64,000 bases of DNA from a virus. The notes beneath the pieces are model-generated. The model was not told the origin of the DNA, did no database searches, and saw only the letters and a list, made by a program, of their open reading frames with translations. Position numbers and translations under genes: made by a program. The stretch is taken from positions 32,001 to 96,000 of IMG/VR virus record IMGVR_UViG_3300044640_002221. One strand, given 5' to 3'. Positions 2,750-35,554 of this stretch are shown here, one piece after another (within the stretch, counting starts at the first letter, position 1; the number at the start of each line of letters is the position of its first letter).

Positions 2750-2780
2750 TTTTATCTTGTTTCTCCTTCTCTTGCCTTTT

Positions 2781-3104
2781 TTATTGTACCCAACAGTAGA
2801 CGTTTACATTCGGGTTCTTTTTGATGTAGTCTTGAATCTTATCCCAGCTATCTAGTGAGCAGACATAGCTGTGAAGCTGCTGTAGAGTCTGTAATAAGTC
2901 CATAGCCTTGTTACCTGAAAGTTCATTGAGAAAATCACAAACTCTAGTGTCAGAATCCGGCAGGGTATCTCTTGCTCTACCAAAGTCAAAGCAGTTCTCT
3001 GAGGAAGCATGGTCATAAAAGCTCTCACCATACCTAGCTGCTTCTTCTTCTAACCTTTTGTACTCTTCAGCCTCTAAAAGAATTAGGTCTACATCAACAC
3101 TCAT
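2781..3104 (-). CDS. Hypothetical protein
   Basis: ORF track; tightly packed in the minus-strand gene run. Confidence 0.6.
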   Translation of the reverse strand: MSVDVDLILLEAEEYKRLEEEAARYGESFYDHASSENCFDFGRARDTLPDSDTRVCDFLNELSGNKAMDLLQTLQQLHSYVCSLDSWDKIQDYIKKNPNVNVYCWVQ

Positions 3105-4609: not shown

Positions 4610-5012
4610 CTACTGACTCCTGTAATCTTTCAGCCTCACAAAGCGACTGGTGAGCCTGCTCCATTAAATGCTTAATCTTAACTACTTTATCTTCTTTTGG
4701 TTCAGCAGCTTCCTTTTGAGATTCTTTGTATAGACGTAGATACTCAGCGGCATCCTCTTTTGAGGCAAAAAAGTAACCTAAACGCCATCTAGCGTTTGTG
4801 GCAGACCAAGCTTTTGTTATGCTTGTTATGTTTCCTTTACAGTCACAGGGCGTAGCTGGTAACAACTGTTGCTCTCCAAAAGTTTCTTCTTTGGCTACTC
4901 CCAAAGCATAAAGGTAAGTAGTTCCTCGCTTTACTACTATCCACTCTGTTATTACTCCTCCCTCTCCAAGTCTGTAAAGGCTTTTATATTTCTCTTTTTT
5001 TGGTTTGGTCAT
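4602..5012 (-). CDS. Hypothetical protein
   Basis: ORF track; stop overlaps the start of the next gene. Confidence 0.6.
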   Translation of the reverse strand: MTKPKKEKYKSLYRLGEGGVITEWIVVKRGTTYLYALGVAKEETFGEQQLLPATPCDCKGNITSITKAWSATNARWRLGYFFASKEDAAEYLRLYKESQKEAAEPKEDKVVKIKHLMEQAHQSLCEAERLQESVDE

Positions 5013-10213: not shown

Positions 10214-11681
10214 ACAACTCTTCCTCAGTTACAACCTTACTGCTATCAGGATATAGCTTATTCAAATGTGTAAGCCTCTTTCTAGCTTGGTTTAGGTAGT
10301 AATGAGGTTCTTCATCCCAGAAGTCTATTTGAAAGGCTGCAGTCTTGCGTTTAGATTGGTCTATCCTGATTCCCCTACCTGTCTTTTGAGTTACTCCAAT
10401 AGTTCCGCTTCCAGCTGCAGCATTAATGTTTAACCCAATACTTGGAAAGTCTACCCCTACGTTTAATGCTGGCGAGGAAAGCAATACTCTCATCTGACAG
10501 TTACTAAAGGCATTTTGTATACTTTCCCTTTCCTTTTTTTTAAGCAGTTTAGTATTGCTATGCACAAAAGGAATATCTAAACCTGTATTGGCAAACTCTT
10601 TTTGAAGTATTAGCCCATGTTCATCTATCTCTGTTACTAGAATTAGCACTTGACTATCAGATGTACACTCTAAATACTTTTGTACTACTCTGACGATCAG
10701 TTCGTTGCGGATTTTATTTCTACAGATAGCTGTAAGATAAACCTCTCGCTGCTCTGGCTTATCAGGATAAACTATTTTACCTCCTTTCATCACAGCGTTT
10801 GAGTAAATGGTAACTGATGCAGGCACTTTAATAAATCTTCCTTTAGGTTTATGGATAACTTTTTTATCAACCATCTCCATTTCTGGTATGACTAAGGCTA
10901 GTGGACCATATACACCTTCTAGGAGTAAATCAGCTCCTGATTCTGAGTACGCTGTGGCTGACAATCCTAACCGGAAGAAGGTATTGGGACAATGTTCGCC
11001 AATAGTCTGGTAAGAGTAACAAGAACCTGTGTGGCACTCATCGCCTATTAGAATTTCTGTTTCAGCTAAGTTGTACTTAAACTTACCCCCAGCATGAGAG
11101 AACAGCGAATTGATAATACCTACAGTTACACGCTGCCAGTCTTCTTTACCATCTCCTACTTGACCTATAGGCTCATCAAGAAACTCTGATAGTTGTTTTA
11201 CTAAAGACTTCTGCAAGGCTATTTGGGGTACAGTAATGAGGATTTTCTGGGTAGGGTATTGCTTGACTACCCATACTAAAGTTTTGCTCTTACCACTACC
11301 TGTAGGGGAGCTAATCATACAACGTTGGAAGTCAATAGCTGTCTTAACTGCTAACTCTTGATGATCCCATGCCCACTCAGGTAACTTCCAGGGGGTGTAA
11401 GCTTCTGCTTGGTATAAGCACTCTAGTTCATAGGGTTCTCCAATCTCTACTAAAAACTCTATTACTCTTGGCAACAACCCAGTGGGAAACGAACTGGTTC
11501 CAACGTCGTAGCAGCTTCTTTTAGGGTCTGCTGGATTCCATTTCTGGTAGTAGTTATTTCTTTCTACTTTCTTGTCTATCCACTGTAATAGCTGCTTAAG
11601 CTTGTAGTCTAGGTTTAGACCACCTGCTTGCTCCTTACTTATTACAGTAGCCTTTGCCCCATTAAAAACTATCTTTATCAC
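10161..11681 (-). CDS. Superfamily 2 helicase (UvsW/XPB-like)
   Basis: SPTGSGKS (Walker A), GDECH (DExH), GLSAT, LNVGVDFP, QKTGRGIR. Confidence 0.9.
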   Translation of the reverse strand: MIKIVFNGAKATVISKEQAGGLNLDYKLKQLLQWIDKKVERNNYYQKWNPADPKRSCYDVGTSSFPTGLLPRVIEFLVEIGEPYELECLYQAEAYTPWKLPEWAWDHQELAVKTAIDFQRCMISSPTGSGKSKTLVWVVKQYPTQKILITVPQIALQKSLVKQLSEFLDEPIGQVGDGKEDWQRVTVGIINSLFSHAGGKFKYNLAETEILIGDECHTGSCYSYQTIGEHCPNTFFRLGLSATAYSESGADLLLEGVYGPLALVIPEMEMVDKKVIHKPKGRFIKVPASVTIYSNAVMKGGKIVYPDKPEQREVYLTAICRNKIRNELIVRVVQKYLECTSDSQVLILVTEIDEHGLILQKEFANTGLDIPFVHSNTKLLKKKERESIQNAFSNCQMRVLLSSPALNVGVDFPSIGLNINAAAGSGTIGVTQKTGRGIRIDQSKRKTAAFQIDFWDEEPHYYLNQARKRLTHLNKLYPDSSKVVTEEELYAEFIGLRQATTASSKD

Positions 11682-11687
11682 GGCATT

Positions 11688-11712
11688 AAAAAGGGGAGTC
11701 TCAGCTCCCCTT
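11688..11712 (-). terminator. Rho-independent terminator
   Basis: On the minus strand AAGGGGAG-CTGAGA-CTCCCCTT followed by a T-run, downstream of the stop of 11735..13078. Confidence 0.65.
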
Positions 11713-11734
11713 AACTTAACTTCACAGATTAGAA

Positions 11735-13078
11735 CTACTCAACTGACTCTAATGTCTTTACTTTTGGTGCGAAGGCACTAAAAAGAGCTGGGTTGGTTTT
11801 TCCAACACTTGAAGAGCTTACAGGTTTAGTAACTACAGGTTCAGTTACAGCTTGCAGAGCAGGCATTCTAGGAGCAGACTCAAAACTAGTCTTACCATTA
11901 GCTACTTCACGCTCTAGCTTTAGAATAGACATAGCATGACGTACCCAGTCTAAAGAAGTCCAGCCTGCTTCAGCCTCAATTACATTTTTATCAGAGACAG
12001 GGTGGAATACTGGGATGTAGTCTTGACCATATTGCTGTTTCTCTAGGTGTCCACAATGCACTTCTGTTACTACTGGATAGCACAACTGACCACCTTGCAG
12101 AACACGGTGGCGTGTACCAGTATAGTTCTGGTCATGCAGGTACTTGAAGTATTCACCTGTAGAATAAATCTCTGAGGGAATGTGAGGGTCTGGTACTACG
12201 TTTCTGTCGAATGTTCCAGTACCAATCCCAGCGTGCTGGGACTTGGATAAACCTTTCAGCTTGAGAATGAATGGACGCTTGAAAGGAACTTTCTGATCTC
12301 CTTCCATTGTGTTAATCTTGGCATCCTCAATGCTTACCCATTTGATAGTAGCTTTTTCAGTATCAATATCATAGTTGTAGATACCTAACTGGAAGACAGC
12401 TATTAAGGCATAACCACCCATACTGCATTTAGCAAACTGAGCATTCTTGTCATTAAACAACTCAGGGTCTCCACCAGTTCCTTCTGGCTTACCATGTAGA
12501 TAATGCTCCCCTGCTTCTACACAAGACTTACAAGTTCGGGGAGTGCTAAAACTTGCGTTAGGATCTGCTCCGATAGGAGGACGACTACCATATAGAACCA
12601 TGTGCTCTTTATCTAACTGAGGGTTAAATACATGAGGATTATTCTTGTTCTGGTACATCCGCTCAAAAGGAAACTTGAGAGGATTGTTGTCGGTGGTATC
12701 TGTACTATTTTTACCTAAATGTTCTACTAAACGAGTAGTACGGCAGATGTTCTTAAAGTTTTTAGGGTCACTATTATCATCAAACGAAGCACCATAATGA
12801 AAGCCTAAGACAATCCCTCTTACAGCACAGAAGTGATGAGAGAAGTGTGATGATACTTCTTTATAAGTTCCAGCACCTTCTTCTCGCTCTTTCTTGGTAG
12901 TAGGTAAAGCCCAATCGAACTTATTAAGAGACTTGATTGAACACTCACGATGAGCTCTCCAAGTGTTGTCAAAGTCTTGACGCTGACCTTCACGCAGGGC
13001 TTGTGGTAATACTTCAGGGTTTTCTTCAAATATTAACTCTTCTGGTTCAAAAGTTGCTAAGTCAGATGTTGTAGTCAT
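11735..13078 (-). CDS. Hypothetical protein (replication-module position; possibly an ssDNA-binding or recombination protein)
   Basis: 447-aa ORF between the helicase and clamp-loader genes; no motif recognised. Confidence 0.55.
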   Translation of the reverse strand: MTTTSDLATFEPEELIFEENPEVLPQALREGQRQDFDNTWRAHRECSIKSLNKFDWALPTTKKEREEGAGTYKEVSSHFSHHFCAVRGIVLGFHYGASFDDNSDPKNFKNICRTTRLVEHLGKNSTDTTDNNPLKFPFERMYQNKNNPHVFNPQLDKEHMVLYGSRPPIGADPNASFSTPRTCKSCVEAGEHYLHGKPEGTGGDPELFNDKNAQFAKCSMGGYALIAVFQLGIYNYDIDTEKATIKWVSIEDAKINTMEGDQKVPFKRPFILKLKGLSKSQHAGIGTGTFDRNVVPDPHIPSEIYSTGEYFKYLHDQNYTGTRHRVLQGGQLCYPVVTEVHCGHLEKQQYGQDYIPVFHPVSDKNVIEAEAGWTSLDWVRHAMSILKLEREVANGKTSFESAPRMPALQAVTEPVVTKPVSSSSVGKTNPALFSAFAPKVKTLESVE

Positions 13079-23603: not shown

Positions 23604-23894
23604 CTAGAGGAGCTTGCGATTTGCTCTATTAGAGTCTAGATAATCATCCAAATATTCTTGTAAGCAGACAGAGCCGCAGAAAGTTCCTTGTTCATTTTGA
23701 GAATGAGGTACTAGGACTTCACTTCTAATAGTTAAAGTAACCAGCAGACTGTGGTTTAAGTCCATCTTTAGACTCCCTCCACACCAGTCGCAGCAATCTT
23801 TCTTACCTATAGCTCCTGTCATTGTTTGCCTCCTAGATATGACAAAGGGAGGGTAATACCCTCCCCTCTTATCAATGAAGCCAGATTGGTCCAA
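23604..23894 (-). CDS. Hypothetical protein with CxxC pairs
   Basis: CDWCG...CGSVC. Confidence 0.55.
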   Translation of the reverse strand: MDQSGFIDKRGGYYPPFVISRRQTMTGAIGKKDCCDWCGGSLKMDLNHSLLVTLTIRSEVLVPHSQNEQGTFCGSVCLQEYLDDYLDSNRANRKLL

Positions 23895-24123
23895 TATTGT
23901 ACTCAGCTCGTCCGGTCAAGGGACTGCCAGCAGCTTTAAAGAACTCAGTCTCTACTTCCACCATTATTCTGTGAATCAGCTCTGCTGCTTCTTTAGCCTC
24001 CGCGTCCCAAGCAAACTTAGGTGTAGTTGGTCTACCATCTTTATCAATTACGTTACCGTGTTTATCAAAGAAGGTTTTAGTCTCATCTATCCAAGTCTTA
24101 CCCGGAGCGCGGGCGTTTAGTTC
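23872..24123 (-). CDS. polA: Family A DNA polymerase, last exon
   Basis: ELNARAPG...AELIHRIMVEVE...YNIGPIWLH* completes motif C (VHD|EL) and the IG..W..H terminus; follows the intron terminal G at 24124. Confidence 0.9.
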   Translation of the reverse strand, partial: ELNARAPGKTWIDETKTFFDKHGNVIDKDGRPTTPKFAWDAEAKEAAELIHRIMVEVETEFFKAAGSPLTGRAEYNIGPIWLH

Positions 24124-24274
24124 CACTTGTGTTACGAGTAGCCCGGTTCCGACTACTCTCTCTAGCTTTCACTAGAGGTCAGATCATATCATCCTCAGTT
24201 ATGAGGGAGCCTGTTTCGAGTGTCCGACACCCTACGTCTTGTGACTGACCGTTGAACCTTGTACGTGCTATAAG

Positions 24275-24355
24275 TGGATGCTAAAAGAGTTGAACTTTTC
24301 TTGGGTTTCCCCACGACTTATGAGGTCGTTGCCTAAACCGCTCGGCCAAGCATCC
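24275..24355 (-). tRNA. tRNA(CAU), probably Ile2 (Met not excluded), with a 13-nt variable region; nested in intron 4
   Basis: GGATGCT/AGCATCC+A acceptor; D arm GCCGAGCGGTTTAGGC; ACGAC-CTCATAA-GTCGT anticodon arm; GGGGAAACCC variable hairpin; AAAAG-TTCAACT-CTTTT T arm; no encoded CCA. Confidence 0.88.
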
Positions 24356-24427
24356 ATCTTTATAGTTTAGCACCTTGGCTGCTGATTGTCCATATCCTTG
24401 TTCTTTTTAAACCTGATGACAGCTAGT

Positions 24428-24703
24428 TTAACAAAGGTCTAAGTTACCTTCTGAACTATAATCTACGTCTGTCAGATGGTCTTGACAACATAAGTAAACT
24501 TTTGCGTCTGCTTTTACCAATCCATCTGCTAACAACTTCTGCACCTTATCTAAAAGCTGCTGAACTGTTATTGCTTCTGGGGGTTTAGGAGCATAGTTTT
24601 GAGGTACTAGTAATGCCCCTATGGTCTTTAAACCTGGATGAGGTGCAGCACCACTTTTGGTTATTGTTTTAGGAAGTATGTAAGGTTCTGTCATGTCTTC
24701 CAC
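24428..24703 (-). CDS. Intron-encoded hypothetical protein (no nuclease motif)
   Basis: ORF track; enclosed by the stem ATGATAGTTA/TAGCTGTCAT between the P and Q elements. Confidence 0.6.
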   Translation of the reverse strand: MEDMTEPYILPKTITKSGAAPHPGLKTIGALLVPQNYAPKPPEAITVQQLLDKVQKLLADGLVKADAKVYLCCQDHLTDVDYSSEGNLDLC

Positions 24704-24815
24704 TATTTATTAACTATCATTATAATCACGCTTGCCGTTTCCAGCTACGTTGTGGTGAACAAGGCTCTGAGGAATTTCCAGCAATTTAAGCTCTTTACCC
24801 ACGACCAACTAATCA

Positions 24816-24905
24816 ATCGTGCACCGCGTTTAATATTATAATTCCTGTTCCTTTAGCCTCCTTTCGTACGCGTATCATGGCTTCTTTCATCATCTGGGCG
24901 CATTC
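24816..24905 (-). CDS. polA: Family A DNA polymerase exon (30 codons)
   Basis: ECAQMMKEAMIRVRKEAKGTGIIILNAVHD, matching the IQGxAAD..K.AM to motif C segment. Confidence 0.9.
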
Positions 24906-25000
24906 CGATTATGTTATCACTGAGCTTTTTATCTCAGTTTCTAAAGATTTCTCCTTAGTCCAGGGCACGTCTTGAACAGTAAGTGGGTAGTAGGTTTGGT

Positions 25001-25366
25001 CTAGAAGGGAGAGGCGTAACCTTTCCAGTCTTCTATGGTATTTAAGGTTTGAGTCTCAGTGGTCAGTCCAGCTATTAAAGTAGAGACACCTCCTTGTAAG
25101 TTTGGTAGTTTTATTCCTTTAGAAGGATTAGCTCTTTCAAACTCTGCATAAGCTTTATCAGAGTAAAACTGCCCCGTGCTTTGCTGGAGTTGGTCTCTCA
25201 GCTTAGTGTTCTCTTCCATAGCAACAATCAACTTTTCAGTCAATTGTTGGTTCTGTGTTTGCAGGTCAGCTACTAAAGCTTGATAGCTACTGGTGAGAAC
25301 TATCTTGGTGTCAAGTATCTTCTCTAAGTCAGAAGACTCGACGAACTGTTCGTTGTGGTTGTTCAT
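25001..25366 (-). CDS. Intron-encoded hypothetical coiled-coil protein
   Basis: ORF track 25001..25411; likely start is ATG 25366, just after the upstream stop. Confidence 0.6.
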   Translation of the reverse strand: MNNHNEQFVESSDLEKILDTKIVLTSSYQALVADLQTQNQQLTEKLIVAMEENTKLRDQLQQSTGQFYSDKAYAEFERANPSKGIKLPNLQGGVSTLIAGLTTETQTLNTIEDWKGYASPF

Positions 25367-25370
25367 TTGT

Positions 25371-25979
25371 TTAGATAACGTAAGGTTGAACAATTGCGCG
25401 GTACTCTTCAAGTCTGGCTTCTAAGGTTTGGCACTTAGTTTCAAGTTGATTAATCTGCTCTACATACTTAGGAACTAAGTCTTCAAGCTCTGCCAATCTA
25501 GCTCTCAAGTGTATGAGTTCTGACTTTGAGCTTTCCTTCTTCTCTGTAGCCTTTTCAGACTGTTCATTAAAGTAGTCTTCTGCAGTACCTTCCCATAAAG
25601 GGTTAGCCTCAAGCTTATCAACTGCCCAGCGAAGAATCTTATCACTGATAATTACTTTGAAGCAGCTCTCTTCTTTTAGAAGACCAATCTTTTCCACAAC
25701 GTCCCAATGCTCATAGAGGAAGATACAGCGGTAAGCTTTTCTTCTTTCTACTCTCTCTTCTAAATAATGATTAAAAGAGTTGAAAGTTCCTCTGTCAGTT
25801 TCTACAGGGTTAGACTTAGTAGCTGATGCCAGCATATCTCTAATCTTTGTGAGAGACTCTCCAGCATCTCGGTAATGTTGAAGGCTCTTTCTCCTTAACT
25901 GTTGAGACTCTTTAAAGTTCTCGTCAGCTTCACCAAACTTAGTCATGTAATTTGTTTCTAATAGAGATAGGATAAGCAT
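25371..25979 (-). CDS. Intron-encoded protein, DUF3102-like N-terminus plus coiled coil
   Basis: YRDAGESLTKIRDML...F.HYLEE.V..RKAYRCI.LYEHW resembles the N-terminus of 43906..45258. Confidence 0.55.
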   Translation of the reverse strand: MLILSLLETNYMTKFGEADENFKESQQLRRKSLQHYRDAGESLTKIRDMLASATKSNPVETDRGTFNSFNHYLEERVERRKAYRCIFLYEHWDVVEKIGLLKEESCFKVIISDKILRWAVDKLEANPLWEGTAEDYFNEQSEKATEKKESSKSELIHLRARLAELEDLVPKYVEQINQLETKCQTLEARLEEYRAIVQPYVI

Positions 25980-26320
25980 AGAACTTTTATTCTGCTAAAG
26001 GACATGACCTGTGGTTTAAACCACAGGTTCTCATTACTAATATAGCAGCTTATTCTAGAAGAAACATCTTGAGTCTTATTAAACCTTCCAACTACCTTAA
26101 TACGACCTTTGCTGCCTACTTACTGTCCGGGGGCGCTCTTGGGTCTCTTACCGTCTGTTCCTGCAATGCAAGACTGAAGACTTAGACCTGCCCGTCGCAC
26201 CTTCCTACCATTTCTGATAGGCTTGGCTCAAAGTTATCCTCAACATCACTTGGTAGGACTTTCTTATGAGTTCACCCCCTGCACTCTAAAAGTCACCTAA
26301 TAGAGGGGCAATTGTTATTT

Positions 26321-27204
26321 CAGTGTTATTACCGTCAAGGCTCTTTATCCCTGACTTCTACTGGTCACCCAGCAGCTTGGACTATTTCATTATCTAGACT
26401 TAGTAGTAGAACTCTCTTTCTATTTAAGAAGAAACCAGGTTCTTGGTACATAAGCTTGGTCAGCCGTTCAACGCGTTCCTTACTGCCGACTCTTATCACT
26501 TGCACACTCCTATTGTTGTAGATGCTAACCTTAAAGTCATTCTCTCTAAGAAAACTAACTAATTGGTCAACAAACTCTTTACTAGCAGAGCATAAAGTTA
26601 TAGCTTTGTAATCCCCTTTTGCCCCATCCTTTTTGATGTGACCATTCCCATCCATGACACCTCTAAAGAAGCTAAAACTTAAAGGAAAGTTAACCTTTAA
26701 AGATTTACTCTTTCTAGGGGTTATTCCAAGGCTAGTTAAATAAGAAGCAACTTCTTTATTAGTGAAGCTTACCTCGTAATAAGTAGTTTGGTATCTCTTG
26801 TCGAAGATAGGGTAGGGTTTCATCAATTCCCCTAAAAAGCTGCAGAAAGCTAAGGCTAAGTCTTCATCTTTTGTAACTAGACTAACCTTTCCTCTATCAT
26901 GCACGCAGCCATCTGTTGCCATTATTCCCAGCCAGTATTGAACTTCTGGGGCAAGCATTTCTGTAAATGGATTAGTTGTTACTTTCTTAGGGAGTCTTGG
27001 CATCTTTTTCTCTACTACATTCTCAGTCTAGATATCGGGCGCTCGTGGGCAGATTATTATTGGGATTCACTGCCTAGTCTCTGAACCTTCTAGGAAACCT
27101 ATGCCCTTCCTAGCTTGGCTTAGCGTTATCTTACCTTGTAAGACTTTCACTAAATTCACCCGATTTTCATTTATTGATTACTCAATAAAGGGGCTCTCTA
27201 CGGG
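26321..27204 (-). mobile_element. Group I intron 3a of polA (884 nt) with a LAGLIDADG gene in P8
   Basis: IGS GCCCC; P GAAUUUAGUGAAA; R UUCAGAGACUA; P3' CGCCCGAU; P8 AUCUAGACU/AGUCUAGAU; S GAAAUAGUC; ends AUAACACUG. Confidence 0.88.
26365..27003 (-). CDS. LAGLIDADG homing endonuclease (double motif)
   Basis: YWLGIMATDGCV and FFRGVMDGNGHI. Confidence 0.9.
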   Translation of the reverse strand: MPRLPKKVTTNPFTEMLAPEVQYWLGIMATDGCVHDRGKVSLVTKDEDLALAFCSFLGELMKPYPIFDKRYQTTYYEVSFTNKEVASYLTSLGITPRKSKSLKVNFPLSFSFFRGVMDGNGHIKKDGAKGDYKAITLCSASKEFVDQLVSFLRENDFKVSIYNNRSVQVIRVGSKERVERLTKLMYQEPGFFLNRKRVLLLSLDNEIVQAAG

Positions 27205-27274
27205 ACCCTGGATCGCGTGGTTCACTGCAGCGCGAACCGAGCTTTCTCCTACGCCCTTAGCATTCTCTTCATCT
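27205..27274 (-). CDS. polA: Family A DNA polymerase exon (70 nt)
   Basis: (V)DEENAKGVGESSVRAAVNHAIQG, the R.A.N..IQG motif. Confidence 0.9.
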
Positions 27275-27441
27275 CTATTGTGTTATCGCCAGGGCTCTTT
27301 ATCCTTGGCTTCTGTAGGTTATTTTTCCACTACAGTACAGACTATATCATCAACTTAAAAGCAAGCAATTAGTTAAACGTACGGTGTTTTAGTCACGTAG
27401 ACTATTTTGAGTTATTCTTTCTCTTTTCTTTTTTATTACTC

Positions 27442-27573
27442 CTACTGCTTAAACACTACTTCTCTGACGCTGCTGTCCTCTCTTTGTAAGAAAAGTTTAG
27501 ACCCTGCTATTCTTTCCTTTAAGAAGTAAGCTCCTGTAACTATAGCTTTTGTACTTACTTCTTCTGTGGTCAT
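27442..27573 (-). CDS. Small hypothetical protein (43 aa), intron 2 cargo
   Basis: Hand translation MTTEEVSTKAIVTGAYFLKERIAGSKLFLQREDSSVREVVFKQ. Confidence 0.4.
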   Translation of the reverse strand: MTTEEVSTKAIVTGAYFLKERIAGSKLFLQREDSSVREVVFKQ

Positions 27574-27639
27574 ATCTTGGCTTCTAAAATGTTTGTAATG
27601 GAAACACTCTGTTTGCTAAGTAGCTTGTCCTCTAGTTGG

Positions 27640-28512
27640 TCAATCTTTGGTATGTTCACTTTGTTGTGCTTGCCAGACAGTAATACCAACTTCATCTTCT
27701 ATAGCTACTAACTCAGCCGTTATGTTAAAGCTCGAAAAATCAAAAACGCTGACTAAATCTACAGATTTAATATGTACCGCTTTTAAAGACAAAGCAGAAA
27801 CTACACGATAGAATAACTCTTCTTGATTACTTACAGAGTTCTTGATTAAGTAAGTTAACTTGTAAAGTTGAGGAGTGGGAGCGGTGTTTTTAACGCTACA
27901 AACTACATTACCCTCTTCATCTTCTACTCTTGTTAAAGACCAAATAGAGTCTTCGGTACTGAACTCTCCCGCAATATCAAAGCCTTTTTGTTTAGCTAAG
28001 TTTTCAGACTCAGTGCTGAATATCTTATAAAACTCACTGACAGAAGCTTTGTTGTTTACAGAGAATACCAGTTTGTAATCTTGAGAATGCTCTTCTTCTA
28101 AGCACTCACCAACTTCACAGTCCCAAACTATCAGGTTGTCTGAGTCATAAATACGTTTTAAAGTTACTAACCTCTCAGAACCTTGAAGTGCATCTATTGT
28201 AATCTCTGCTGCTACTAAAGCTTCTTGCAGGTCTTTAACTATAACTTCTCTTTCTAAGTTAAAGCTTCTTGGTACAATTTGCTTATTAACGTAAAACTCT
28301 AGCCTGAAAGTTTTCAGGTAAGAATATCTACAATGAAGTCTATAAAGAACTGCGCCAGCTCTAGTTTGACCATCTTTAAGAGTCTCTCTAGCTGCATCTA
28401 AGTAACCCTGAAGTACCTCTCTTTCAATGCCTGGATAGCTTTGGATTAGAAACTCTAGGGTCGGGAGTTCTTTTAAAGTATCGGCAATCAAACAATTGTA
28501 TAGTTGTTGCAT
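27640..28512 (-). CDS. Hypothetical protein with internal YKL repeats, intron 2 cargo
   Basis: ORF track; repeated YKL...FY(K/R)...(V/L)EDE.G..V units. Confidence 0.65.
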   Translation of the reverse strand: MQQLYNCLIADTLKELPTLEFLIQSYPGIEREVLQGYLDAARETLKDGQTRAGAVLYRLHCRYSYLKTFRLEFYVNKQIVPRSFNLEREVIVKDLQEALVAAEITIDALQGSERLVTLKRIYDSDNLIVWDCEVGECLEEEHSQDYKLVFSVNNKASVSEFYKIFSTESENLAKQKGFDIAGEFSTEDSIWSLTRVEDEEGNVVCSVKNTAPTPQLYKLTYLIKNSVSNQEELFYRVVSALSLKAVHIKSVDLVSVFDFSSFNITAELVAIEDEVGITVWQAQQSEHTKD

Positions 28513-28741
28513 GGTTATTTCTTTTAGTCTTGGTAATAATCTGATTGAAATTGTTCTTCTACGAGGTTATCAAGCTGTTCTGTAGCTATATGAGCAAAGC
28601 ATACATGGAGGCTGCTCATATAGTCGGAAGCTTCATTACCTATTACTAAAGCATTCTCTAAGTTACTAGCCAACACATCTCTATAGATTAAAAAGTCTGG
28701 CAAAACCTCTGTACTGACGGTTTAACGTCAGTTTGTATCTA

Positions 28742-28891
28742 TTACTGCTTTTCTTTCTCCTCAATGTCATCAGCTTCCTCCCTGTAAGAGTTCAGTTGTG
28801 CAACTATTTGTTCTGCTGTTTCTCCTTCTGGGAGGGTTACAGCTCCGCTGAGAACATAGTCTTGCAGCATTGTAATAATATCTTGGCTCAT
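28742..28891 (-). CDS. Small hypothetical protein (49 aa), intron 2 cargo
   Basis: Hand translation MSQDIITMLQDYVLSGAVTLPEGETAEQIV...; paralog of 29500..29706. Confidence 0.6.
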   Translation of the reverse strand: MSQDIITMLQDYVLSGAVTLPEGETAEQIVAQLNSYREEADDIEEKEKQ

Positions 28892-29319
28892 GGTAGCTTA
28901 GTCTTGTTGTTCTGTTTATACCAATCTGGGTTGTACATTTCTACTTTCTGATCAATCTCTAGCTTTAGACAAGCCTCTAAATTTACTTCAACCACATTAA
29001 GAGTGCGGACTGCTACACTAGATAACCGTTGAACCTGTAAGTTTGGTTCATCCTCCTCTGTTAAAGTCTTTAAAACTTCTAGAGCACTCATCGTGGTTGG
29101 TAGAGTAATGATAAACGGATTGAGCCCTAGCCAATGAAGAGCTGCACTTGTTGACCAAGTAGCATCTAGCTCATGAGAACTTTTATAGCCAGTCTCAAAA
29201 GCAGCTTTAGCTTTTTCTGCTGAACGAAAAGTGCATAGAGACTTATCTTCAGTAAGAGACAAAAAAGCTTTTCCTTGAGTTCTAAAGATTATGAAGTAGT
29301 TATTCACTGCGTTTACCAA
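28888..29319 (-). CDS. Hypothetical protein, intron 2 cargo
   Basis: ORF track. Confidence 0.6.
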   Translation of the reverse strand: MVNAVNNYFIIFRTQGKAFLSLTEDKSLCTFRSAEKAKAAFETGYKSSHELDATWSTSAALHWLGLNPFIITLPTTMSALEVLKTLTEEDEPNLQVQRLSSVAVRTLNVVEVNLEACLKLEIDQKVEMYNPDWYKQNNKTKLP

Positions 29320-29500
29320 ACCCTTTGGCTGACCTTAAATCTGCCTTAGTTCTTATTTTAGGCGTAGGCTGACAGGGGGAGGAGTCATCAATAAAGGATT
29401 TAATTTCTGCTCTATCAACTTGACTTATCCCATAGCTGTTAATTAGTCCTCTGTCATCAGACCAGACAGGACTAGCGACAAATATTTCTGCTTCACGCAT
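29300..29500 (-). CDS. Hypothetical protein, intron 2 cargo
   Basis: ORF track; ends AKGFGK like its neighbour (ARGFGK). Confidence 0.55.
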   Translation of the reverse strand: MREAEIFVASPVWSDDRGLINSYGISQVDRAEIKSFIDDSSPCQPTPKIRTKADLRSAKGFGKRSE

Positions 29501-29706
29501 TACTTAACTCCTTTAGGCTTACCAAATCCTCTAGCTGCTGGCAGTGGTGGATTGAGATAACCAAACTCCCCCTGGTCTAAGACAAAGGTTTCAAAGAAAA
29601 CTAAGTCTTTCTGCATCTTCTCGACGTTAGACCCTTCTGGTGGGGTTATAGCCCCACTCTGAATGAGCTTTATCAACTGAATGGAAGTCTTTTCACGTTT
29701 AGTCAT
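29500..29706 (-). CDS. Hypothetical protein, intron 2 cargo
   Basis: ORF track; SGAITPPEG motif. Confidence 0.6.
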   Translation of the reverse strand: MTKREKTSIQLIKLIQSGAITPPEGSNVEKMQKDLVFFETFVLDQGEFGYLNPPLPAARGFGKPKGVK

Positions 29707-30208
29707 CTTGATTTACCTTTGGTAGTCTTCTACCTATTTCATAGTTCTCAAACATCCACTTAACTACGTGGTCTACTAGATAGTGTTTTAACTGCCAGTA
29801 ACTTGACCTGCCCATCTGTTCTTCAGCTACCTGCATACAAGCCTTTAACTTTTCAGACCCTTCAGGTTCATGGTTAGAAGTTTTAGTAAGAGCTTGGCTT
29901 ATCTTATCAAGAATCTCCTCTACATTATCTGCTGGTCTTGTTTGATAAACAGTTACTCCACCAGACAGATTACCTACTGGTGGAGTGGCTAAGTTTTCTA
30001 CTGGTGGAGTGGCTAAGTTTTTAGGAATCCTGTAAACCTGAAAGTAACAGTCGGGCGCGGCAAGTAGCATCCTAGTGAGAGTTACATTCTTGTAGTCTGG
30101 AAAGTCTTTAACTAATTCTTCCATTTGGGTATACAGCTTCAGCAGCTCTCTAGGTAGCATATAGAGAGTCTTAGCATACTGTACATAATCAAAGTCTTGT
30201 TCTGTCAT
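29699..30208 (-). CDS. Hypothetical protein, intron 2 cargo
   Basis: ORF track; 24-nt tandem duplication (NLATPPVE/NLATPPVG). Confidence 0.6.
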   Translation of the reverse strand: MTEQDFDYVQYAKTLYMLPRELLKLYTQMEELVKDFPDYKNVTLTRMLLAAPDCYFQVYRIPKNLATPPVENLATPPVGNLSGGVTVYQTRPADNVEEILDKISQALTKTSNHEPEGSEKLKACMQVAEEQMGRSSYWQLKHYLVDHVVKWMFENYEIGRRLPKVNQDD

Positions 30209-30213
30209 AATGT

Positions 30214-30546
30214 TTAAGAGTTTTGTTCTTTATTCTTGAAAAAGGTCAGCCAATCTATTACTACATCTAATAGAGCGTCTTTTGCTTCTGGAGATAGTCT
30301 TGCTACCATTTCCACCAAATCTCTCTGAGCATCTTCAGCAAACAACTTGGGCTGATAGACTCTTCTAAACTCCTTTCTAATCTCTCTAAGCTTTGGCAGG
30401 TGCGCTTTTAGTAAAGGGTTAACCTCCCAAGCTGCTATTATGCTTTCAATAATGTCTGAAGCTTCTTTTACTACAGGACTAAGACTAGTCTCTATAGCTT
30501 GCTCAATAAGCTGGGTAGCTTCTTCTACATACTCTTGTTCTGTCAT
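30214..30546 (-). CDS. Hypothetical protein, intron 2 cargo
   Basis: ORF track. Confidence 0.6.
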   Translation of the reverse strand: MTEQEYVEEATQLIEQAIETSLSPVVKEASDIIESIIAAWEVNPLLKAHLPKLREIRKEFRRVYQPKLFAEDAQRDLVEMVARLSPEAKDALLDVVIDWLTFFKNKEQNS

Positions 30547-30888
30547 TTAATTCTCCGATGCAGATGGTTTGTACATCCAATTATCTCCTCCATGCGGCGG
30601 AGGAACGTCTATAAACCCTAATCTTTCATACCAAGCTTTAAGGTCAGTCTTTCCTAAGCCTTGATTAAACGGAACAGACTGCAAACAAAAGGTTGCTTTA
30701 GGATGAGCATCAAAGACCTCTTGCAAAAGCTGCGTGCCGTAACCTTGTCTCTGAAACTCAAGGTTGATGAACAAGTTTATTATCTGAACTTGTTTACCCT
30801 CTTTGACTGTGAATGTGCCGCCTATTATCTCACCTGTGTCTGACAGAAGCTCATAATAGGCAGCTTTTAACTTGTTTATTTTTACCAT
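30547..30888 (-). CDS. GNAT-family acetyltransferase, intron 2 cargo
   Basis: LFINLEFQRQGYGTQLL (acetyl-CoA motif A) and LKAWYERLGF (motif B). Confidence 0.85.
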   Translation of the reverse strand: MVKINKLKAAYYELLSDTGEIIGGTFTVKEGKQVQIINLFINLEFQRQGYGTQLLQEVFDAHPKATFCLQSVPFNQGLGKTDLKAWYERLGFIDVPPPHGGDNWMYKPSASEN

Positions 30889-30920
30889 TGCTTGCTTTTA
30901 AGTTGCTGGGCGCTCGTGTG

Positions 30921-31544
30921 CTACAAGTAATTCATGTCTATTTTATAAGACATAGATGGAATGATAAATGGCTCAACAAGGGCTATAAATTTCTTTGCTT
31001 CCTTTGTTCCACAAGTTAATCTGTACCAACCTTTGTTTAGAACCTGACCAAAGTTAATAGCGTACTTTTCTTTAAAGAAATCTATGATAATTTGGTTTTC
31101 TTCTTTGGTTCTATGAGTGTTCAGATATATTCTTCTAGCGTGAATCTTTCCATTTCTTTTAGGTAAAGAAAGATTTCCATCGTCCATATACCAAATAGCT
31201 ATTCCTTCTGGCGTTAGGTAGTTTAAAATCTTTCTTTGATAGGTTTTTATCCCATTTGGGTACATCCACTTTCTTAAATAACGAAACCATCTATGCTGTT
31301 TTGAAATTTGCACACCTGGATACCCATTATTATTTATCTCCTGGATTTTTGGTTGTTTGCCCCCGAGAATTGAGTGTAGTAACTTAGCTTTGTGCTCCAG
31401 GTACTCTCTTTGCTTTGCTGAGTGTCGCAACTTCAAAGTATAGTACGTTTTAGGAACAGTACATCTTTTGTTAACTACAGGCGTTACGTACCCGTCCCCT
31501 AAGACCATTGCTATTAGCAGAGATTTTTTTAACTGTCTTTCCAT
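30921..31544 (-). CDS. LAGLIDADG homing endonuclease (LAGLIDADG_2-like)
   Basis: LIAMVLGDGYV, HSAKQREYL..K, LTPEGIAIWYMDDG. Confidence 0.9.
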   Translation of the reverse strand: MERQLKKSLLIAMVLGDGYVTPVVNKRCTVPKTYYTLKLRHSAKQREYLEHKAKLLHSILGGKQPKIQEINNNGYPGVQISKQHRWFRYLRKWMYPNGIKTYQRKILNYLTPEGIAIWYMDDGNLSLPKRNGKIHARRIYLNTHRTKEENQIIIDFFKEKYAINFGQVLNKGWYRLTCGTKEAKKFIALVEPFIIPSMSYKIDMNYL

Positions 31545-31723
31545 CTTCTTTTACAAACCTTTTGGTTGTACTTTATGTAAATTGTAGCTTAGTCGTTACA
31601 CTTTCCTACCATCCCTGATAGGCTTAGCTAGGTATTACCCTTCCTTGCTGCAAAGGTTTGGGGCTTTCACCTAATTCACCCAGTTGTCATCCACCAATCA
31701 CTTGGTGGCGGGGCTGAGAACCA

Positions 31724-32154
31724 ACCCATCTCCATAATCCTGATACTGGAGAGATAGCATATCCTCTGGCGGCTGCGATCGCTCCGAACTCTTCTGCCCA
31801 AGCGTAATAACCTGGATAGGTAGTTCTGTGTCCTGTTAACCAAGACTGAGCTACTTCTTCTTTTACACAGAAGTTTTCAGCAGCTGTTGAAGCGGACATA
31901 AGATATATGCTACCAAAGTTGAGAGATTTTGCACTCTTCCTTGCTCCGCTTTTGTCTGCTATTGCTCTCCATTCGTGCTCTGGTTTTCCTTCAAATAAAT
32001 GAGGGGCTACACAACCTTTTGATGAGAGAGTATGTAAATCGGAGTAGGGATTTACATACTCTGTACCATCTTCTAAGTAGAGCTTAGTTTTTGCTAGATA
32101 ACTGTTGACCATTGTGGGGTCTTTCGACCATGCTGCGGCTGTGATTAGCTCTTG
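31724..32154 (-). CDS. polA: Family A DNA polymerase exon containing motif B
   Basis: QELITAAAWSKDPTM...DLHT...RKSAKSLNFGSIY...SGLWRW(V); 431 nt, and phase matches both neighbouring exons. Confidence 0.92.
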
Positions 32155-32308
32155 CTTTTGTGATTACCGTGAGGCTCTTTATCCTCACCTCTTATAGTTT
32201 CCTATAAGCTTCGACTATCTCTTCATCTCATGTTGTATTAATACCCTAGACGGGGCTCGAACCCGCAGTTCCTTTCGTAAGCATAAGGGTTAGGAGAAAA
32301 GGTTATAA

Positions 32309-33418
32309 CTACCTGAGCCATTTTCTTATAGCGTTGTCACTTACACCAAACATTTTACCCACAGAAACATAACTTTTTGAAGAAACTAGAGCTAATAGTT
32401 CTTCTTTACTAGGTCTGTCTTTGACTTTTCTAGTATGTAATTGATGACAAGAGGGACAGCGAGCACTCTTTCTACTCAATGTGATTTTGCCGCAGTCTTT
32501 ACACTTGTTATCTTGAACTTCTTTGTTTCTGAGTTTTTCCTGTTTTAGCTTCAGTAAGTCTGCCTTTTCTTGTCTTTTAATGGTCAGTTGTTTCTGCTTT
32601 TCTTCTGTAGCCTTATTACGAAGATGTCTCTCTGCCTGCTTAACTCTTAGTGTGTCTAACTTTACTGTTTCTAGTGTTATTAGCTGCATTGCCAGACTGA
32701 ACTTTCTTTCTAGCTTGCTTGTAGAGTCTGCATATAATACTTGACAAACTTTTAAAGCTCGCAGCCCATTAACATTGACCTCGCAGTAGTTACCTCTATT
32801 AACAGGTCTACACCTATAAGCTGGGTCTATAGACTTTACATATTCTATAAACCCTTCCACCATATTTATAGACCCACATAGACCAACTGCTCTTTTCTTT
32901 TCTCCTACATAAACCCATCCATCTCCATCTATACAGCCCCGCCAAAAGTGACGCTGTAAAGAGGGTTCTATGTAAGGTGGTGATGCTATTAGAGATTTAC
33001 GAGGTACTACCCCAAGCTTTGCCAAGTCTTCTTTCATTCTTTTTGAGAATACTGATAGACAAGCAGAGTTTTTCTTCGTGTATCTAACTTTTGTGTGGGC
33101 TTCTAAATAATCTTTAAACTCTTCCAGTATAAGAAAATCATTTTTATGTACTTCTAAGGAAATATTATTTCCTTTTGTAGATACACACCCATCAGTTATT
33201 AAAAACCCAAGGAAATAGGCTTTACTTTCAGTATCAATGTTTTCAAAGAATGACTCGTTCACAGGTTTAAGCGTGCCTCTTCCGTTTTTGGCTACTAGGG
33301 CAAGATTAATATAACATAAGATGCCTGGCGTTCGTGGAGCTTTCTGCTGTTCCAGCTTATTAACTCTAGTCTGTACACCTTCCTTCCATTCCTGGAAGGC
33401 TTGGCTCGGTGTTGTCAT
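32309..33418 (-). CDS. LAGLIDADG homing endonuclease with a C-terminal Zn ribbon and HTH
   Basis: YFLGFLITDGCV, FWRGCIDGDGWV, CKDCG...CPSC, SYVSVGKMFGVSDNAIRKW; the N-terminus overlaps the intron core. Confidence 0.88.
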   Translation of the reverse strand: MTTPSQAFQEWKEGVQTRVNKLEQQKAPRTPGILCYINLALVAKNGRGTLKPVNESFFENIDTESKAYFLGFLITDGCVSTKGNNISLEVHKNDFLILEEFKDYLEAHTKVRYTKKNSACLSVFSKRMKEDLAKLGVVPRKSLIASPPYIEPSLQRHFWRGCIDGDGWVYVGEKKRAVGLCGSINMVEGFIEYVKSIDPAYRCRPVNRGNYCEVNVNGLRALKVCQVLYADSTSKLERKFSLAMQLITLETVKLDTLRVKQAERHLRNKATEEKQKQLTIKRQEKADLLKLKQEKLRNKEVQDNKCKDCGKITLSRKSARCPSCHQLHTRKVKDRPSKEELLALVSSKSYVSVGKMFGVSDNAIRKWLR

Positions 33419-33514
33419 GCTCTAGTAGAGTTTAGAGTTCACCGAGTTAACCAGGTTTACACTACATGATTACTCGTGTAGGAGGCCAATGGTAGATGCA
33501 ACCCTGTCTTTGCC

Positions 33515-33856
33515 TTAAAGACGGTTATGCTTTTCGGTTCTTTGTACTCTTCTTGGTACTTTATTCTCATCGAGAATGTTATATAAGACAGTAGTGCCAA
33601 AACCAAACTCTTTTAGGATGTCGCCAGCTTTTGAACCAGCTTTATATTTTGATATAACCTGCTCAACAGTGGCAGAAGGCAGCTTGACTTTACTAGCGAT
33701 AGTCCTTCTTTCATAAACTTGGTTTTTATCCAATAGAGTATAAAAATTATGACTGTTAAGCTCGTATCTCAGTTTTATTCTGTGTACAGGCTCGCCATCT
33801 TTATATGCTGCTATTATTTCTGCTACTTGTTGTGGGGTTAAATCTTTATAGCTCAT
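33515..33856 (-). CDS. Intron-encoded tandem-HTH DNA-binding protein
   Basis: Two similar HTH-like units (QVAEIIAAYKDGEPVHRIKLRYEL / QVISKYKAGSKAGDILKEFGFG); no nuclease motif. Confidence 0.65.
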   Translation of the reverse strand: MSYKDLTPQQVAEIIAAYKDGEPVHRIKLRYELNSHNFYTLLDKNQVYERRTIASKVKLPSATVEQVISKYKAGSKAGDILKEFGFGTTVLYNILDENKVPRRVQRTEKHNRL

Positions 33857-33877
33857 TGCACCTACCGGATATTTTCA

Positions 33878-33991
33878 ACCTGCGTAATCACAGCTTATAT
33901 GCACTTCTCCTGGTCTACATTCAAACCCTACTCTGGGATTACCTGGGAAGGTAATTGTTCTTGTTTCAGGTTGCCATAGAGTAATTCCCAA
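33878..33991 (-). CDS. polA: Family A DNA polymerase exon containing motif A
   Basis: ...TITFPGNPRVGFECRPGEVHISCDYAG; same frame as 34154..35554 but separated from it by 4 stops; the 5' limit (TTG 33991, preceded by AAAGGA) is uncertain. Confidence 0.75.
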
Positions 33992-34188
33992 ATTTCTTTT
34001 CCTTTCTTAGTTAGTTGCAGATACTGCCTCTTGATGAGCAGCTGCTTACTTTTTAAAACATTCAAAGCAAGCATCACCTCCTTGGTGGTTAGTGGAACAT
34101 CTGGAAATAGAATACCCTTTTGAGGGTCTTTAAAGCACTGGAGAACTAGCAACTCATGCTGGCTCAACTTTAAGCCCAACGGGAGCAA
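33928..34188 (-). CDS. Winged-helix-like reading frame bridging two polA segments
   Basis: LSQHELLVLQ...LNVLKSKQLLI..YLQLTKKGKEIWELL; +1 frame relative to polA. Confidence 0.45.
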   Translation of the reverse strand: MLPLGLKLSQHELLVLQCFKDPQKGILFPDVPLTTKEVMLALNVLKSKQLLIKRQYLQLTKKGKEIWELLYGNLKQEQLPSQVIPE

Positions 34189-35554
34189 ACCAGGCTTTAG
34201 ATAGTGTAAGATTGCAATGCGTTTTATTCCCTATTTGTTGGCTGTTAGGTGCTGAAGAACTGGCTCTACTTGTAGCGGCTCCAAGTTGATCATAGCGAGG
34301 ATGAACGTTACCAGTCACAGGATTAATAAACTTTCTCAAGTCCATACCTTCCTGCTTCAATAACTTCTTAAACTCAAGAATAGCTTTCACTACAGGGCTG
34401 AGAGCTATCAAGTCTGACTGTTCCATGATAGTTAGTTCCTCAAAGAGAGATTCCTCATCATCACTAATAAAGATATCATCTCCACCAGCCTCACCATCGC
34501 CCCCGCTGTCTGTCTTTTTAGAAGCATGAAGTAAGTCTACAATGTCTAGCATTCTTTTGAGAGTTTTACCTTGTACATCAGTTAGCTTATTCATGTTGAT
34601 AGCTTTCTGAAGTACATCTAGTAAGCCTGTTGAGGAGCGAAGAACCTTGAGGGCTTTCTGCGAAGGAACTTCTTTACCAGACCAATCACGTTGGGGAGTG
34701 TCAAGCTCTAGTTCTCTCGAAAGATAAACTCCAGCTTCGTCTAGTGCTTCACAAACCCCTTCTTGATAAAGTCGCATGGTTTCTTCACTGACTGGCATAC
34801 CGCCATATTCCATCTCAGCTACTATGACAGTGAAGTTTAATTCTCGTTTAAGAACTTTCTCCATTCCAAAGCCATAAACACCTGAGCTGTTACCTGTCTG
34901 TAAGATAGGGCTATCTGGTAGTGCGGCTATAATAACTTGCTCCATGATGTCATGTATCTGAAATAGATATTTAACATCTGTAGCTGCGTATAGCACCTTC
35001 TCATACCACCATTCATTATCTAGAGTTCTGGCTGATATTGCAGTTCCCCAGGTAGAAGCACGCAGGTCTTTCTTACCGGTGATGTGAACACTCAAATACT
35101 CTCGGCACAAGTCAGCGTAACTATGTCCATGACCTTTACCTACCTTTGAGCCTGTGGCATTGGATATTAACTTACCCATTACCATGATGTCTCGCACGCG
35201 CTCTGGCATATAGTCCAAGGTTGATTTCATGAACTGCATATCAAACTTGTAGTTAATACCTAGCTGATAGTCTTGTACACTTTCTAAAGTGTCTATCAGT
35301 TCTTGAGGGTTGTAACCAGCAACTTCTAGGTGAAGTAAATCAAAGACGTAGGGGATACCTTTAGGCTTCTGGGCTATTAGCAGAGAGATTCTACCTGTGT
35401 GAGGGTCAAGAGCAGAGCCACCTTTGGTTAACCACTCTGGTCTTACACAGGTTTCTGTATCTACTGCCAGCCGCTTTGCTCCATAAAGGTCTCTACAAGC
35501 TAGAGGATAGTCTTGCAGGTTGGTTATGTAGGCAAAAGGTTTAGTTTGTTTCAC
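34154..35554 (-). CDS. polA: Family A DNA polymerase, N-terminal 3'-5' exonuclease and thumb region
   Basis: ExoI AVDTE, ExoII NYKFD, ExoIII YAATD, and HPRYDQLGAATSRASSSAPNSQQI (TGRLSS.PNLQNI equivalent). Confidence 0.92.
   Translation of the reverse strand: MKQTKPFAYITNLQDYPLACRDLYGAKRLAVDTETCVRPEWLTKGGSALDPHTGRISLLIAQKPKGIPYVFDLLHLEVAGYNPQELIDTLESVQDYQLGINYKFDMQFMKSTLDYMPERVRDIMVMGKLISNATGSKVGKGHGHSYADLCREYLSVHITGKKDLRASTWGTAISARTLDNEWWYEKVLYAATDVKYLFQIHDIMEQVIIAALPDSPILQTGNSSGVYGFGMEKVLKRELNFTVIVAEMEYGGMPVSEETMRLYQEGVCEALDEAGVYLSRELELDTPQRDWSGKEVPSQKALKVLRSSTGLLDVLQKAINMNKLTDVQGKTLKRMLDIVDLLHASKKTDSGGDGEAGGDDIFISDDEESLFEELTIMEQSDLIALSPVVKAILEFKKLLKQEGMDLRKFINPVTGNVHPRYDQLGAATSRASSSAPNSQQIGNKTHCNLTLSKAWFAPVGLKVEPA

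Follow-up and report, generated by a model that had tools for sequence, protein, structure and literature searches.

Five putative cargo-bearing group I introns in a phage's DNA polymerase gene

The C-terminal polymerase gene and its exons

The stretch of DNA analysed here, referred to as the window, comprises 64,000 nt (bases 32001-96000) of the 136,923-bp IMG/VR virus record IMGVR_UViG_3300044640_002221, which is about 71% complete according to CheckV. Its minus strand contains a family A DNA polymerase (PolA) that is encoded in two parts, an N-terminal gene (PolA-N) and a C-terminal gene (PolA-C), with a small conserved open reading frame (ORF) between them (Table 1). The coding sequence of PolA-C comprises 957 nt in five exons and is stretched over 10.1 kb, with introns accounting for 90% of the gene. 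These intervening sequences are probably group I introns, all of which carry further genes in their peripheral loops.

For comparison, the genomes L005 (73% identical to the window), L007 (1.1 kb), L008, L009, L010 and L011 as well as the cyanophage Ma-LMM01 (L004) were used. A megablast search of the polymerase region against isolate phages gave no relevant match, and in protein searches the nearest isolates were distant cyanophages with 23-28% identity (Ma-LMM01 group, Pam2, PA-SR01; Pseudanabaena phages are among the nearest). A metagenome scan for relatives yielded solely the 1.1-kb L007, and exact-pattern scans of IMG/VR with two conserved motifs of intron B matched solely the L005 contig.

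When joined, the five exons encode 318 amino acids without internal stop, and all catalytic PolA motifs are intact in the product. Translation of the five segments reproduced the motifs given in the initial annotation of this DNA (DYAG|QE, RKSAKSLNFGSIY, IQG|ECA and VHD|EL). Joined PolA-C could be aligned along its full length to the uninterrupted C-terminal PolA of L010 (11603-12511, E 8e-90) and L011 (13123-14181, E 5e-80), and all four junctions, DYAG|QE, WRW|VD, IQG|EC and VHD|EL, are located in gap-free columns of the alignment. The equivalent of exon 3 is contiguous with the neighbouring exons in L008 and L010. The two micro-exons of 70 and 90 nt have no ORF of their own. Because the proportion of nonsynonymous differences (pN) against L005 amounts to 0.11-0.12 at a proportion of synonymous differences (pS) of 0.69-0.83, both are best explained as translated sequence under purifying selection. 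The domain PF00476 has no other match anywhere in the record, and an intron-free polymerase elsewhere, which would have spoken against the initial annotation, was not found in the ~71% of the genome covered.

Table 1. Features of the polymerase locus in the window (dN/dS, ratio of nonsynonymous to synonymous substitution rates)
Feature	Position	Strand	Remarks
PolA N-terminal gene	35554-34154	minus	466 aa; 3'-5' exonuclease, thumb, start of pol domain; Pfam PF01612, PF00476
Small conserved ORF	34188-33928	minus	86 aa; overlaps end of N gene and start of C gene; dN/dS 0.36 against L005
PolA-C exon 1	33991-33878	minus	TTG start at 33991; ends ...DYAG; pN 0.12, pS 0.53
Intron A	33877-32155	minus	1723 nt
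Tandem helix-turn-helix ORF	33856-33515	minus	113 aa; L1 of intron A
Intron A core	33514-33318	minus	
Intron A P8	33323-33305 / 32242-32224	minus	19 bp
Intron A S element	32220-32213	minus	
Intron A LAGLIDADG ORF	33418-32309	minus	369 aa; interrupts tRNA-like element within P8
PolA-C exon 2	32154-31724	minus	QELITAAAW ... RKSAKSLNFGSIY ... GLWRW
Intron B	31723-27275	minus	4449 nt
Intron B P1-P7, 5' half	31723-31590	minus	R element 31601-31592
Intron B LAGLIDADG ORF	31544-30921	minus	Replaces P7.1/7.2 loop
Intron B P3'	30912-30906	minus	GCGCCCAG; identical in L005; directly after endonuclease stop codon
Intron B P8 arms	5' 30905-30884; 3' 27378-27351	minus	
Intron B L8 cargo	30888-27640	minus	Eight tightly packed co-oriented ORFs; ~3.5-kb loop
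GNAT acetyltransferase ORF	30888-30547	minus	Pfam 36.5 bits
Intron B S element	27347-27340	minus	Followed by P9, P9.1, terminal G 27275
PolA-C exon 3	27274-27205	minus	70-nt micro-exon; DEENAKGVGESSVRAAVNHAIQG; pN 0.11, pS 0.83 against L005
Intron 4a	27204-26321	minus	884 nt, complete; LAGLIDADG ORF 27003-26365 in L8
Intron 4b	26320-24906	minus	1415 nt; abuts 4a
Intron 4b core	26320-26108	minus	
Intron 4b P8	26129-26085 / 25008-24973	minus	
Intron 4b cargo ORFs	25979-25371; 25411-25001	minus	202 and 136 aa; in P8; both conserved in L005
PolA-C exon 4	24905-24816	minus	90-nt micro-exon; ECAQMM...NAVHD; pN 0.12, pS 0.69
Intron D	24815-24124	minus	692 nt
Intron D ORF	24703-24428	minus	91 aa; P5 extension
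tRNA (anticodon CAU)	24355-24274	minus	Tip of P6, intron D; ARAGORN, RF00005 50.8 bits
Intron D 3' domain	24272-24124	minus	31 pairs, 19 compensatory, 0 broken (four orthologues)
PolA-C exon 5	24123-23872	minus	ELNARAPG ... PIWLH, then stop; dN/dS 0.16

The five putative introns and their cargo

The five introns occupy four sites and add up to 9163 nt (1723 + 4449 + 884 + 1415 + 692), in agreement with the initial annotation, whose count of five holds only since IQG| is occupied by two abutting introns. As described there, U precedes each 5' splice site and each intron ends with G (5/5; terminal G at 32155, 27275, 26321, 24906 and 24124). The assignment to group I draws on Rfam scores, on conserved core elements and long-range helices, and on covariation. 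With the covariance model RF00028 (gathering score 50 bits), which had been proposed as a check, intron 4a scored 63.7 bits (27214-26358) and thus above the gathering score. Below it, intron A was matched in two pieces of 43.7 and 28.4 bits and intron B in part, over P3-P6, with 26.4 bits; intron D has no Rfam match. Among the orthologues, intron A, which lacks the endonuclease insert in both genomes, reached 81.8 bits in L005 and 69.3 bits in L007, and 4b scored 25.5 bits in L005. The introns that stay below the gathering score are all broken up by large inserts. Across the 137-kb record, RF00028 has no match outside the polymerase gene.

Core elements could be assigned in all five introns. 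R/S element pairs were found for A, B and 4a, and P7 reads GGGCA/UGCCC in 4b and GGUCA/UGAUC in D. Insertions of the P7.1/P7.2 type between P7 and P3' are common to A, B and 4b. A, B, 4a and 4b have a P9.1 hairpin, its loop being of the GAUAAAGAG type with GAUAAAAAG as the form found in 4b. An ...AACA... 3' tail is common to all five introns. Because of the shared loop and tail and of blastn cross-matches between the introns, they look like one proliferating family. In consensus folds, for which mostly two to four genomes were available, compensatory pairs amount to 19 of 31 in the 3' domain of D, 19 of 73 in the core of A (window, L005, L007), 10 of 73 in the mini-intron of B and 12 of 91 in that of 4b, with no broken pair in B, 4b and the D 3' domain. 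The P8 duplexes have z scores of -6.5 to -8.7. A test for inteins was negative: no in-frame Hint domain was found in the window, and the intervening sequences bear stops in the exon frame.

The cargo is also distributed as the initial annotation had reported. Three introns contain LAGLIDADG genes with Pfam matches to PF03161 (31544-30921, 103.8 bits) and PF14528 (27003-26365, 47.3 bits; 33418-32309, 31.3 bits), and four hold non-nuclease cargo, located in L1 of A, P8 of B and 4b, and P5 and P6 of D. L005, an independent relative at 73% identity, has kept this layout, while the cargo content turns over.

Since the guide sequence of intron A lies ~390 nt downstream of the splice site, the first ORF of this intron is placed in L1. 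In P1, one exon/guide pair is A-U in the window and G-C in L005, a compensatory change. The L1 product is modelled as a tandem three-helix helix-turn-helix protein (pLDDT 78) without nuclease domain, and a fold search returned weak matches to bipartite DNA-binding domains of this type (best E 0.056). Compared to L005, L8 of intron A contains an additional 1089 nt (33317-32229), consisting of a 19-bp P8 extension (z = -6.5), a tRNA-like shell and the LAGLIDADG ORF. The shell (33304-32243), absent in L005, corresponds to the acceptor and T arm of a tRNA; it is interrupted by the 968-nt LAGLIDADG region in the window and by a ~170-nt non-coding insert in L007 (about 775-975). ARAGORN did not call this element with default settings but did so at a relaxed threshold, including the 968-nt insert.

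Intron B is by far the longest of the five. Its R and S elements are 4.25 kb apart, and the 3' arm of P8, the S element, P9, P9.1 and the terminal G follow 3.5 kb downstream of P3'. Both P3' and P8 are located exactly where the L005 orthologue predicts. P8 is composed of 18 perfect pairs, or of 22 if a bulge is allowed (dG -30.8, z -6.7), and none of 300 shuffled sequences was as good. The L005 counterpart has 21 pairs with a dG of -30.3, and all eight positions that differ between the two genomes are compensated on the opposite strand (8/8). Most ORFs of the cargo loop have neither homologue nor family match. The loop in L005 contains four ORFs, of which one (68 aa) is in common with the window. 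The last cargo ORF is separated from the 3' arm of P8 by ~260 nt (27380-27639), which are free of ORFs of at least 60 aa and contain just two of 41 and 43 aa; a simple scan of this segment revealed no promoter or terminator.

At IQG|, exon 3 of L005 directly abuts the orthologue of 26320 onward (89.6% identity) and 4a is absent. On this basis 4a appears to be an extra 884-nt intron placed exactly at the boundary between exon 3 and 4b. The Rfam match would put the end of 4a at 26358; this placement was rejected, since the comparison with L005 puts it at 26321, past an extra hairpin. For the guide of 4b (UUGCCC, 26312-26307) to pair with its partner at the end of exon 3 (GGGU|AA), 4a has to be removed first, which implies that 4a would be spliced before 4b. 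The two cargo genes in P8 of 4b show dN/dS values of 0.12 and 0.23 against L005. A homologue of the 202-aa gene lies far from the polymerase in L011, where PolA-C is intron-free, and for this reason the gene is regarded as an ordinary phage gene.

Orthologues of intron D interrupt VHD| in four genomes (window, L005, L008 and L009). P1 is formed by the exon sequence CACGAU (24821-24816) with GUCGUG (24805-24800), and the U-G pair at the splice site is retained in 4/4. Two loops of this intron are variably filled. The P5 extension, which holds the 91-aa ORF in the window, is empty in L005 and L009 and contains a reverse-strand LAGLIDADG gene in L008. The tip of P6 carries a tRNA(CAU) in L005 as in the window; in L009 it is occupied by an ORF, and in L008 it is a simple hairpin. 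The tRNA is nearly identical in both phages (window 24274-24355; L005 18563-18644). With a long variable arm, a Ser/Tyr-like D arm and discriminator A73, it does not exhibit the usual Met/Ile architecture.

The split of the polymerase and its relatives

The initial annotation had treated the complete 11.7 kb as a single polymerase gene. This has to be revised: the N-terminal gene (35554-34154) is a separate cistron clade-wide, and no intron joins it to PolA-C. PolA of the whole phage clade consists of two cistrons with the small conserved ORF between them. Split loci are found at 33928-35554 in the window, 9989-12511 in L010, 9992-14181 in L011 and 2475-4840 in Ma-LMM01. The annotation of the latter is likewise split (gp180/gp179/gp178), and gp178 aligns to exons 2 and 3 of the window. 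In the clade the cut passes through the pol domain, after the PNxQQ segment and ahead of motif A. Among the relatives of the N protein, down to ~30% identity, 82 of 450-470 aa share the end point and none runs on into motif A.

Homologues of the 86-aa small ORF, which is helix-turn-helix-like by eye and has no Pfam match, were found at the equivalent position in L005, L007, L008, L010 and L011. PolA-C begins inside this ORF; its start codon is TTG in the window, and L005 and L007 have ATG at the matching position. In L011, two opposite-strand ORFs (354 and 110 aa) are located between the polymerase halves (11538-12934). A further intron between the N gene and exon 1 was considered and rejected, since the N proteins of the relatives end alike and the small ORF is conserved as a protein. 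The own start codons of the C gene and the opposite-strand genes in the gap of L011 argue further against it, and a group I signal is absent between the N gene and exon 1. We also observed that the N protein in its tail (..SKAWFAPVG..) and the C protein in its head (..PRVGFECRPG..) are similar to one and the same pre-motif-A strand. In the more distant relatives P0102 and P0121 (~746 aa), PolA is unsplit and both halves are covered, which suggests that the split is derived within the clade.

Published split family A polymerases of T7-like cyanophages are cut at the border between the exonuclease and pol domains (PMC10201439). As in the window and in Ma-LMM01, PolA is there encoded by two adjacent cistrons, the products of which presumably assemble. 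In contrast, the split in the window and in Ma-LMM01 lies inside the pol domain with a small ORF in between. No paper describing a split of PolA within the pol domain, between PNxQQ and motif A, was found in the literature.

Among the cluster representatives related to exon 2, many proteins are intact at 290-350 aa and few are unsplit at ~746 aa, and some stop at site B (...RWVN*), C (...AAIN...) or D (...VHDRFCRG*). Because the proteins of relatives break at the same sites, the four motifs appear to be recurrent insertion sites in the clade. Close relatives additionally carry inteins at two sites, ATSR|C of the N gene and RKSAK|C of exon 2; these are mini-inteins or contain an endonuclease of the HNH or LAGLIDADG type. 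They occur in P0001, P0004, P0005, P0014 and P0021 and in L005 (9983-12391 and 13251-15095); the window has neither. As these sites are empty in the window, the same polymerase seems to be a target of inteins, introns and endonucleases. A further group I intron (RF00028, 83.1 bits) was detected in L008 (2463-2736) in another gene ~7 kb upstream of its polymerase, with a LAGLIDADG homologue beside it (1906-2547).

Proposed splicing, alternatives and comparison with known introns

Taken together, we consider it probable, at roughly 0.78, that PolA-C is spread over 10.1 kb by five group I introns of the IA type (P7.1/P7.2) which bear cargo and self-splice in cis. Since the ORFs are co-oriented, minus-strand terminators are not in excess and no sigma-70-like promoter was found before the 3' half of B, cis self-splicing from one transcript is the best reading. 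We infer from the sequence both that splicing happens in cis and how the cargo is expressed. The polymerase would be made from two cistrons, PolA-N and PolA-C, on a single long minus-strand transcript. The halves of each ribozyme core would be drawn together by long closing helices, chiefly P8 with 18-22 bp but also P1, P5 and P6, and guanosine-initiated self-splicing would join the exons. At IQG|, 4a would leave first, allowing the 4b guide to reach exon 3. Three LAGLIDADG genes, about 12 ordinary phage ORFs and one tRNA may have been inserted into peripheral loops without consequence for catalysis, and the cargo would be expressed either from the precursor or from introns after their excision. 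The initial annotation had proposed that the introns may act as neutral insertion havens and may couple expression of the cargo to the replicase transcript.

Several points weigh against this explanation. Introns B, 4b and D stay under the Rfam gathering score in the window, which is expected with kb-sized inserts but still a shortfall. Most of the covariation comes from few genomes, and in B the P8 arms may differ because entire cassettes were exchanged and not because single changes were compensated one by one. A translated loop of 3.5 kb is kinetically demanding for a ribozyme. Finally, as the record is incomplete, a second replicase may be encoded elsewhere.

Intron B, and perhaps 4b, might instead be bipartite, with halves that are separated within the cargo loop by transcription or RNA processing, reassociate by P8, P3 and P7 and are spliced in trans. 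The unusual length of the P8 arms, 18-22 bp compared to the 5-bp P8 hairpin of intron D, would suit intermolecular pairing, and giant coral ND5-717 introns without simple cis-splicing have been described (PMC6545197). Long closing stems are, however, equally useful in cis. Additionally, all cargo ORFs run in gene direction, and terminator excess and a sigma-70-like promoter are both lacking in 27640-27380, which makes trans-splicing unlikely. The cargo blocks could also be DNA cassettes with terminal inverted repeats that landed in intron loops, the arm differences being due to cassette replacement. The P8 arms are indeed near-perfect inverted repeats, and between the window and L005 both arm sequence and cargo differ, with one ORF in common. 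But in A, B and 4b the arms begin precisely where P8 is expected, with P3' on one side and J8/7 on the other, their first six pairs are conserved, they contain G-U pairs and bulges, and the cargo ORFs have no transposase or recombinase match. We regard cassettes as rather improbable; moreover, they bear on the origin of the cargo and not on the helix serving the ribozyme. That the C-terminal fragments are decaying relics or separate peptides while another polymerase replicates the genome is scarcely credible, even with a record of ~71% completeness, as the micro-exons of 23 and 30 aa lack a start codon or ORF and yet combine saturated synonymous changes with conserved amino acids, all catalytic motifs are intact and L005 has the same arrangement at 73% identity.

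The introns of T4 td, nrdB and sunY are phage group IA introns with homing endonucleases, and such introns are treated as compact selfish elements with the endonuclease as sole passenger. Phage group I introns are not known to contain more than a single endonuclease gene, and their typical length is well below 1.5 kb. Similar to these, the introns in the window interrupt conserved motifs of a replication gene, have endonuclease ORFs in peripheral loops and possess P7.1/P7.2; several introns per gene are also known. They are unlike them in that a single intron comprises as many as nine ORFs and 4.4 kb, that a tRNA gene lies in P6, and that two introns abut without an exon between them. Introns in phage DNA polymerase genes have been reported for SPO1 and Bastille (PMC3984707) and Pf-WMP3 (PMC3428280), and phage introns have been surveyed in the Bastillevirinae (PMC11878797).

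The closest parallel is the hexacoral mitochondrial ND5-717 intron, which holds 2 to 16 conventional genes in P8 within an essential gene; giant corallimorpharian forms are removed by back-splicing from the circular genome (PMC6545197). In both systems, non-endonuclease genes lie in P8, are co-oriented with the essential host gene and are inherited vertically; here P8 contains eight ORFs in B and two in 4b (dN/dS 0.12-0.23). ND5-717 is, in contrast, a single organelle intron with terminal A (PMC6545197), whereas the phage has five introns in 957 nt with terminal G in 5/5, cargo also in L1, P5 and P6, and turnover between close relatives. IStrons likewise combine a bacterial group I ribozyme with non-endonuclease protein genes, but their cargo is their own IS200/605 transposase at the 3' end (PMC4227781) instead of genes in P8, P5, P6 and L1. 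No transposase family was found among the cargo ORFs with Pfam and PHROGs. In the literature we found phage introns with single endonucleases and IStrons, and no phage intron with multi-gene cargo or a tRNA. As far as we found, the layout of a cargo intron has so far been published only for coral mitochondria.

Phage introns in essential genes may, as a tentative proposal, represent heritable docking bays for ordinary genes and tRNAs, in which translated inserts of several kb are tolerated provided that the loop is clamped by a long helix. Splicing of the replicase message might then be linked to the expression of cargo or to the supply of tRNA, and intron B might even assemble from two RNAs. 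Intron D may be cut when the tRNA in its P6 is processed, and splicing and tRNA maturation could thereby compete or cooperate. If splicing holds true, the limits of size and content presumed for ribozymes of bacteria and phages would have to be revised, and 'fragmented' polymerase annotations in metagenomic phages would be accounted for. The long P8 clamps and the tandem introns with an enforced splicing order would further provide natural designs for ribozymes with very large inserts in their loops, and the locus would offer a non-mitochondrial system in which the coexistence of translation, tRNA processing and ribozyme folding can be studied on one RNA.

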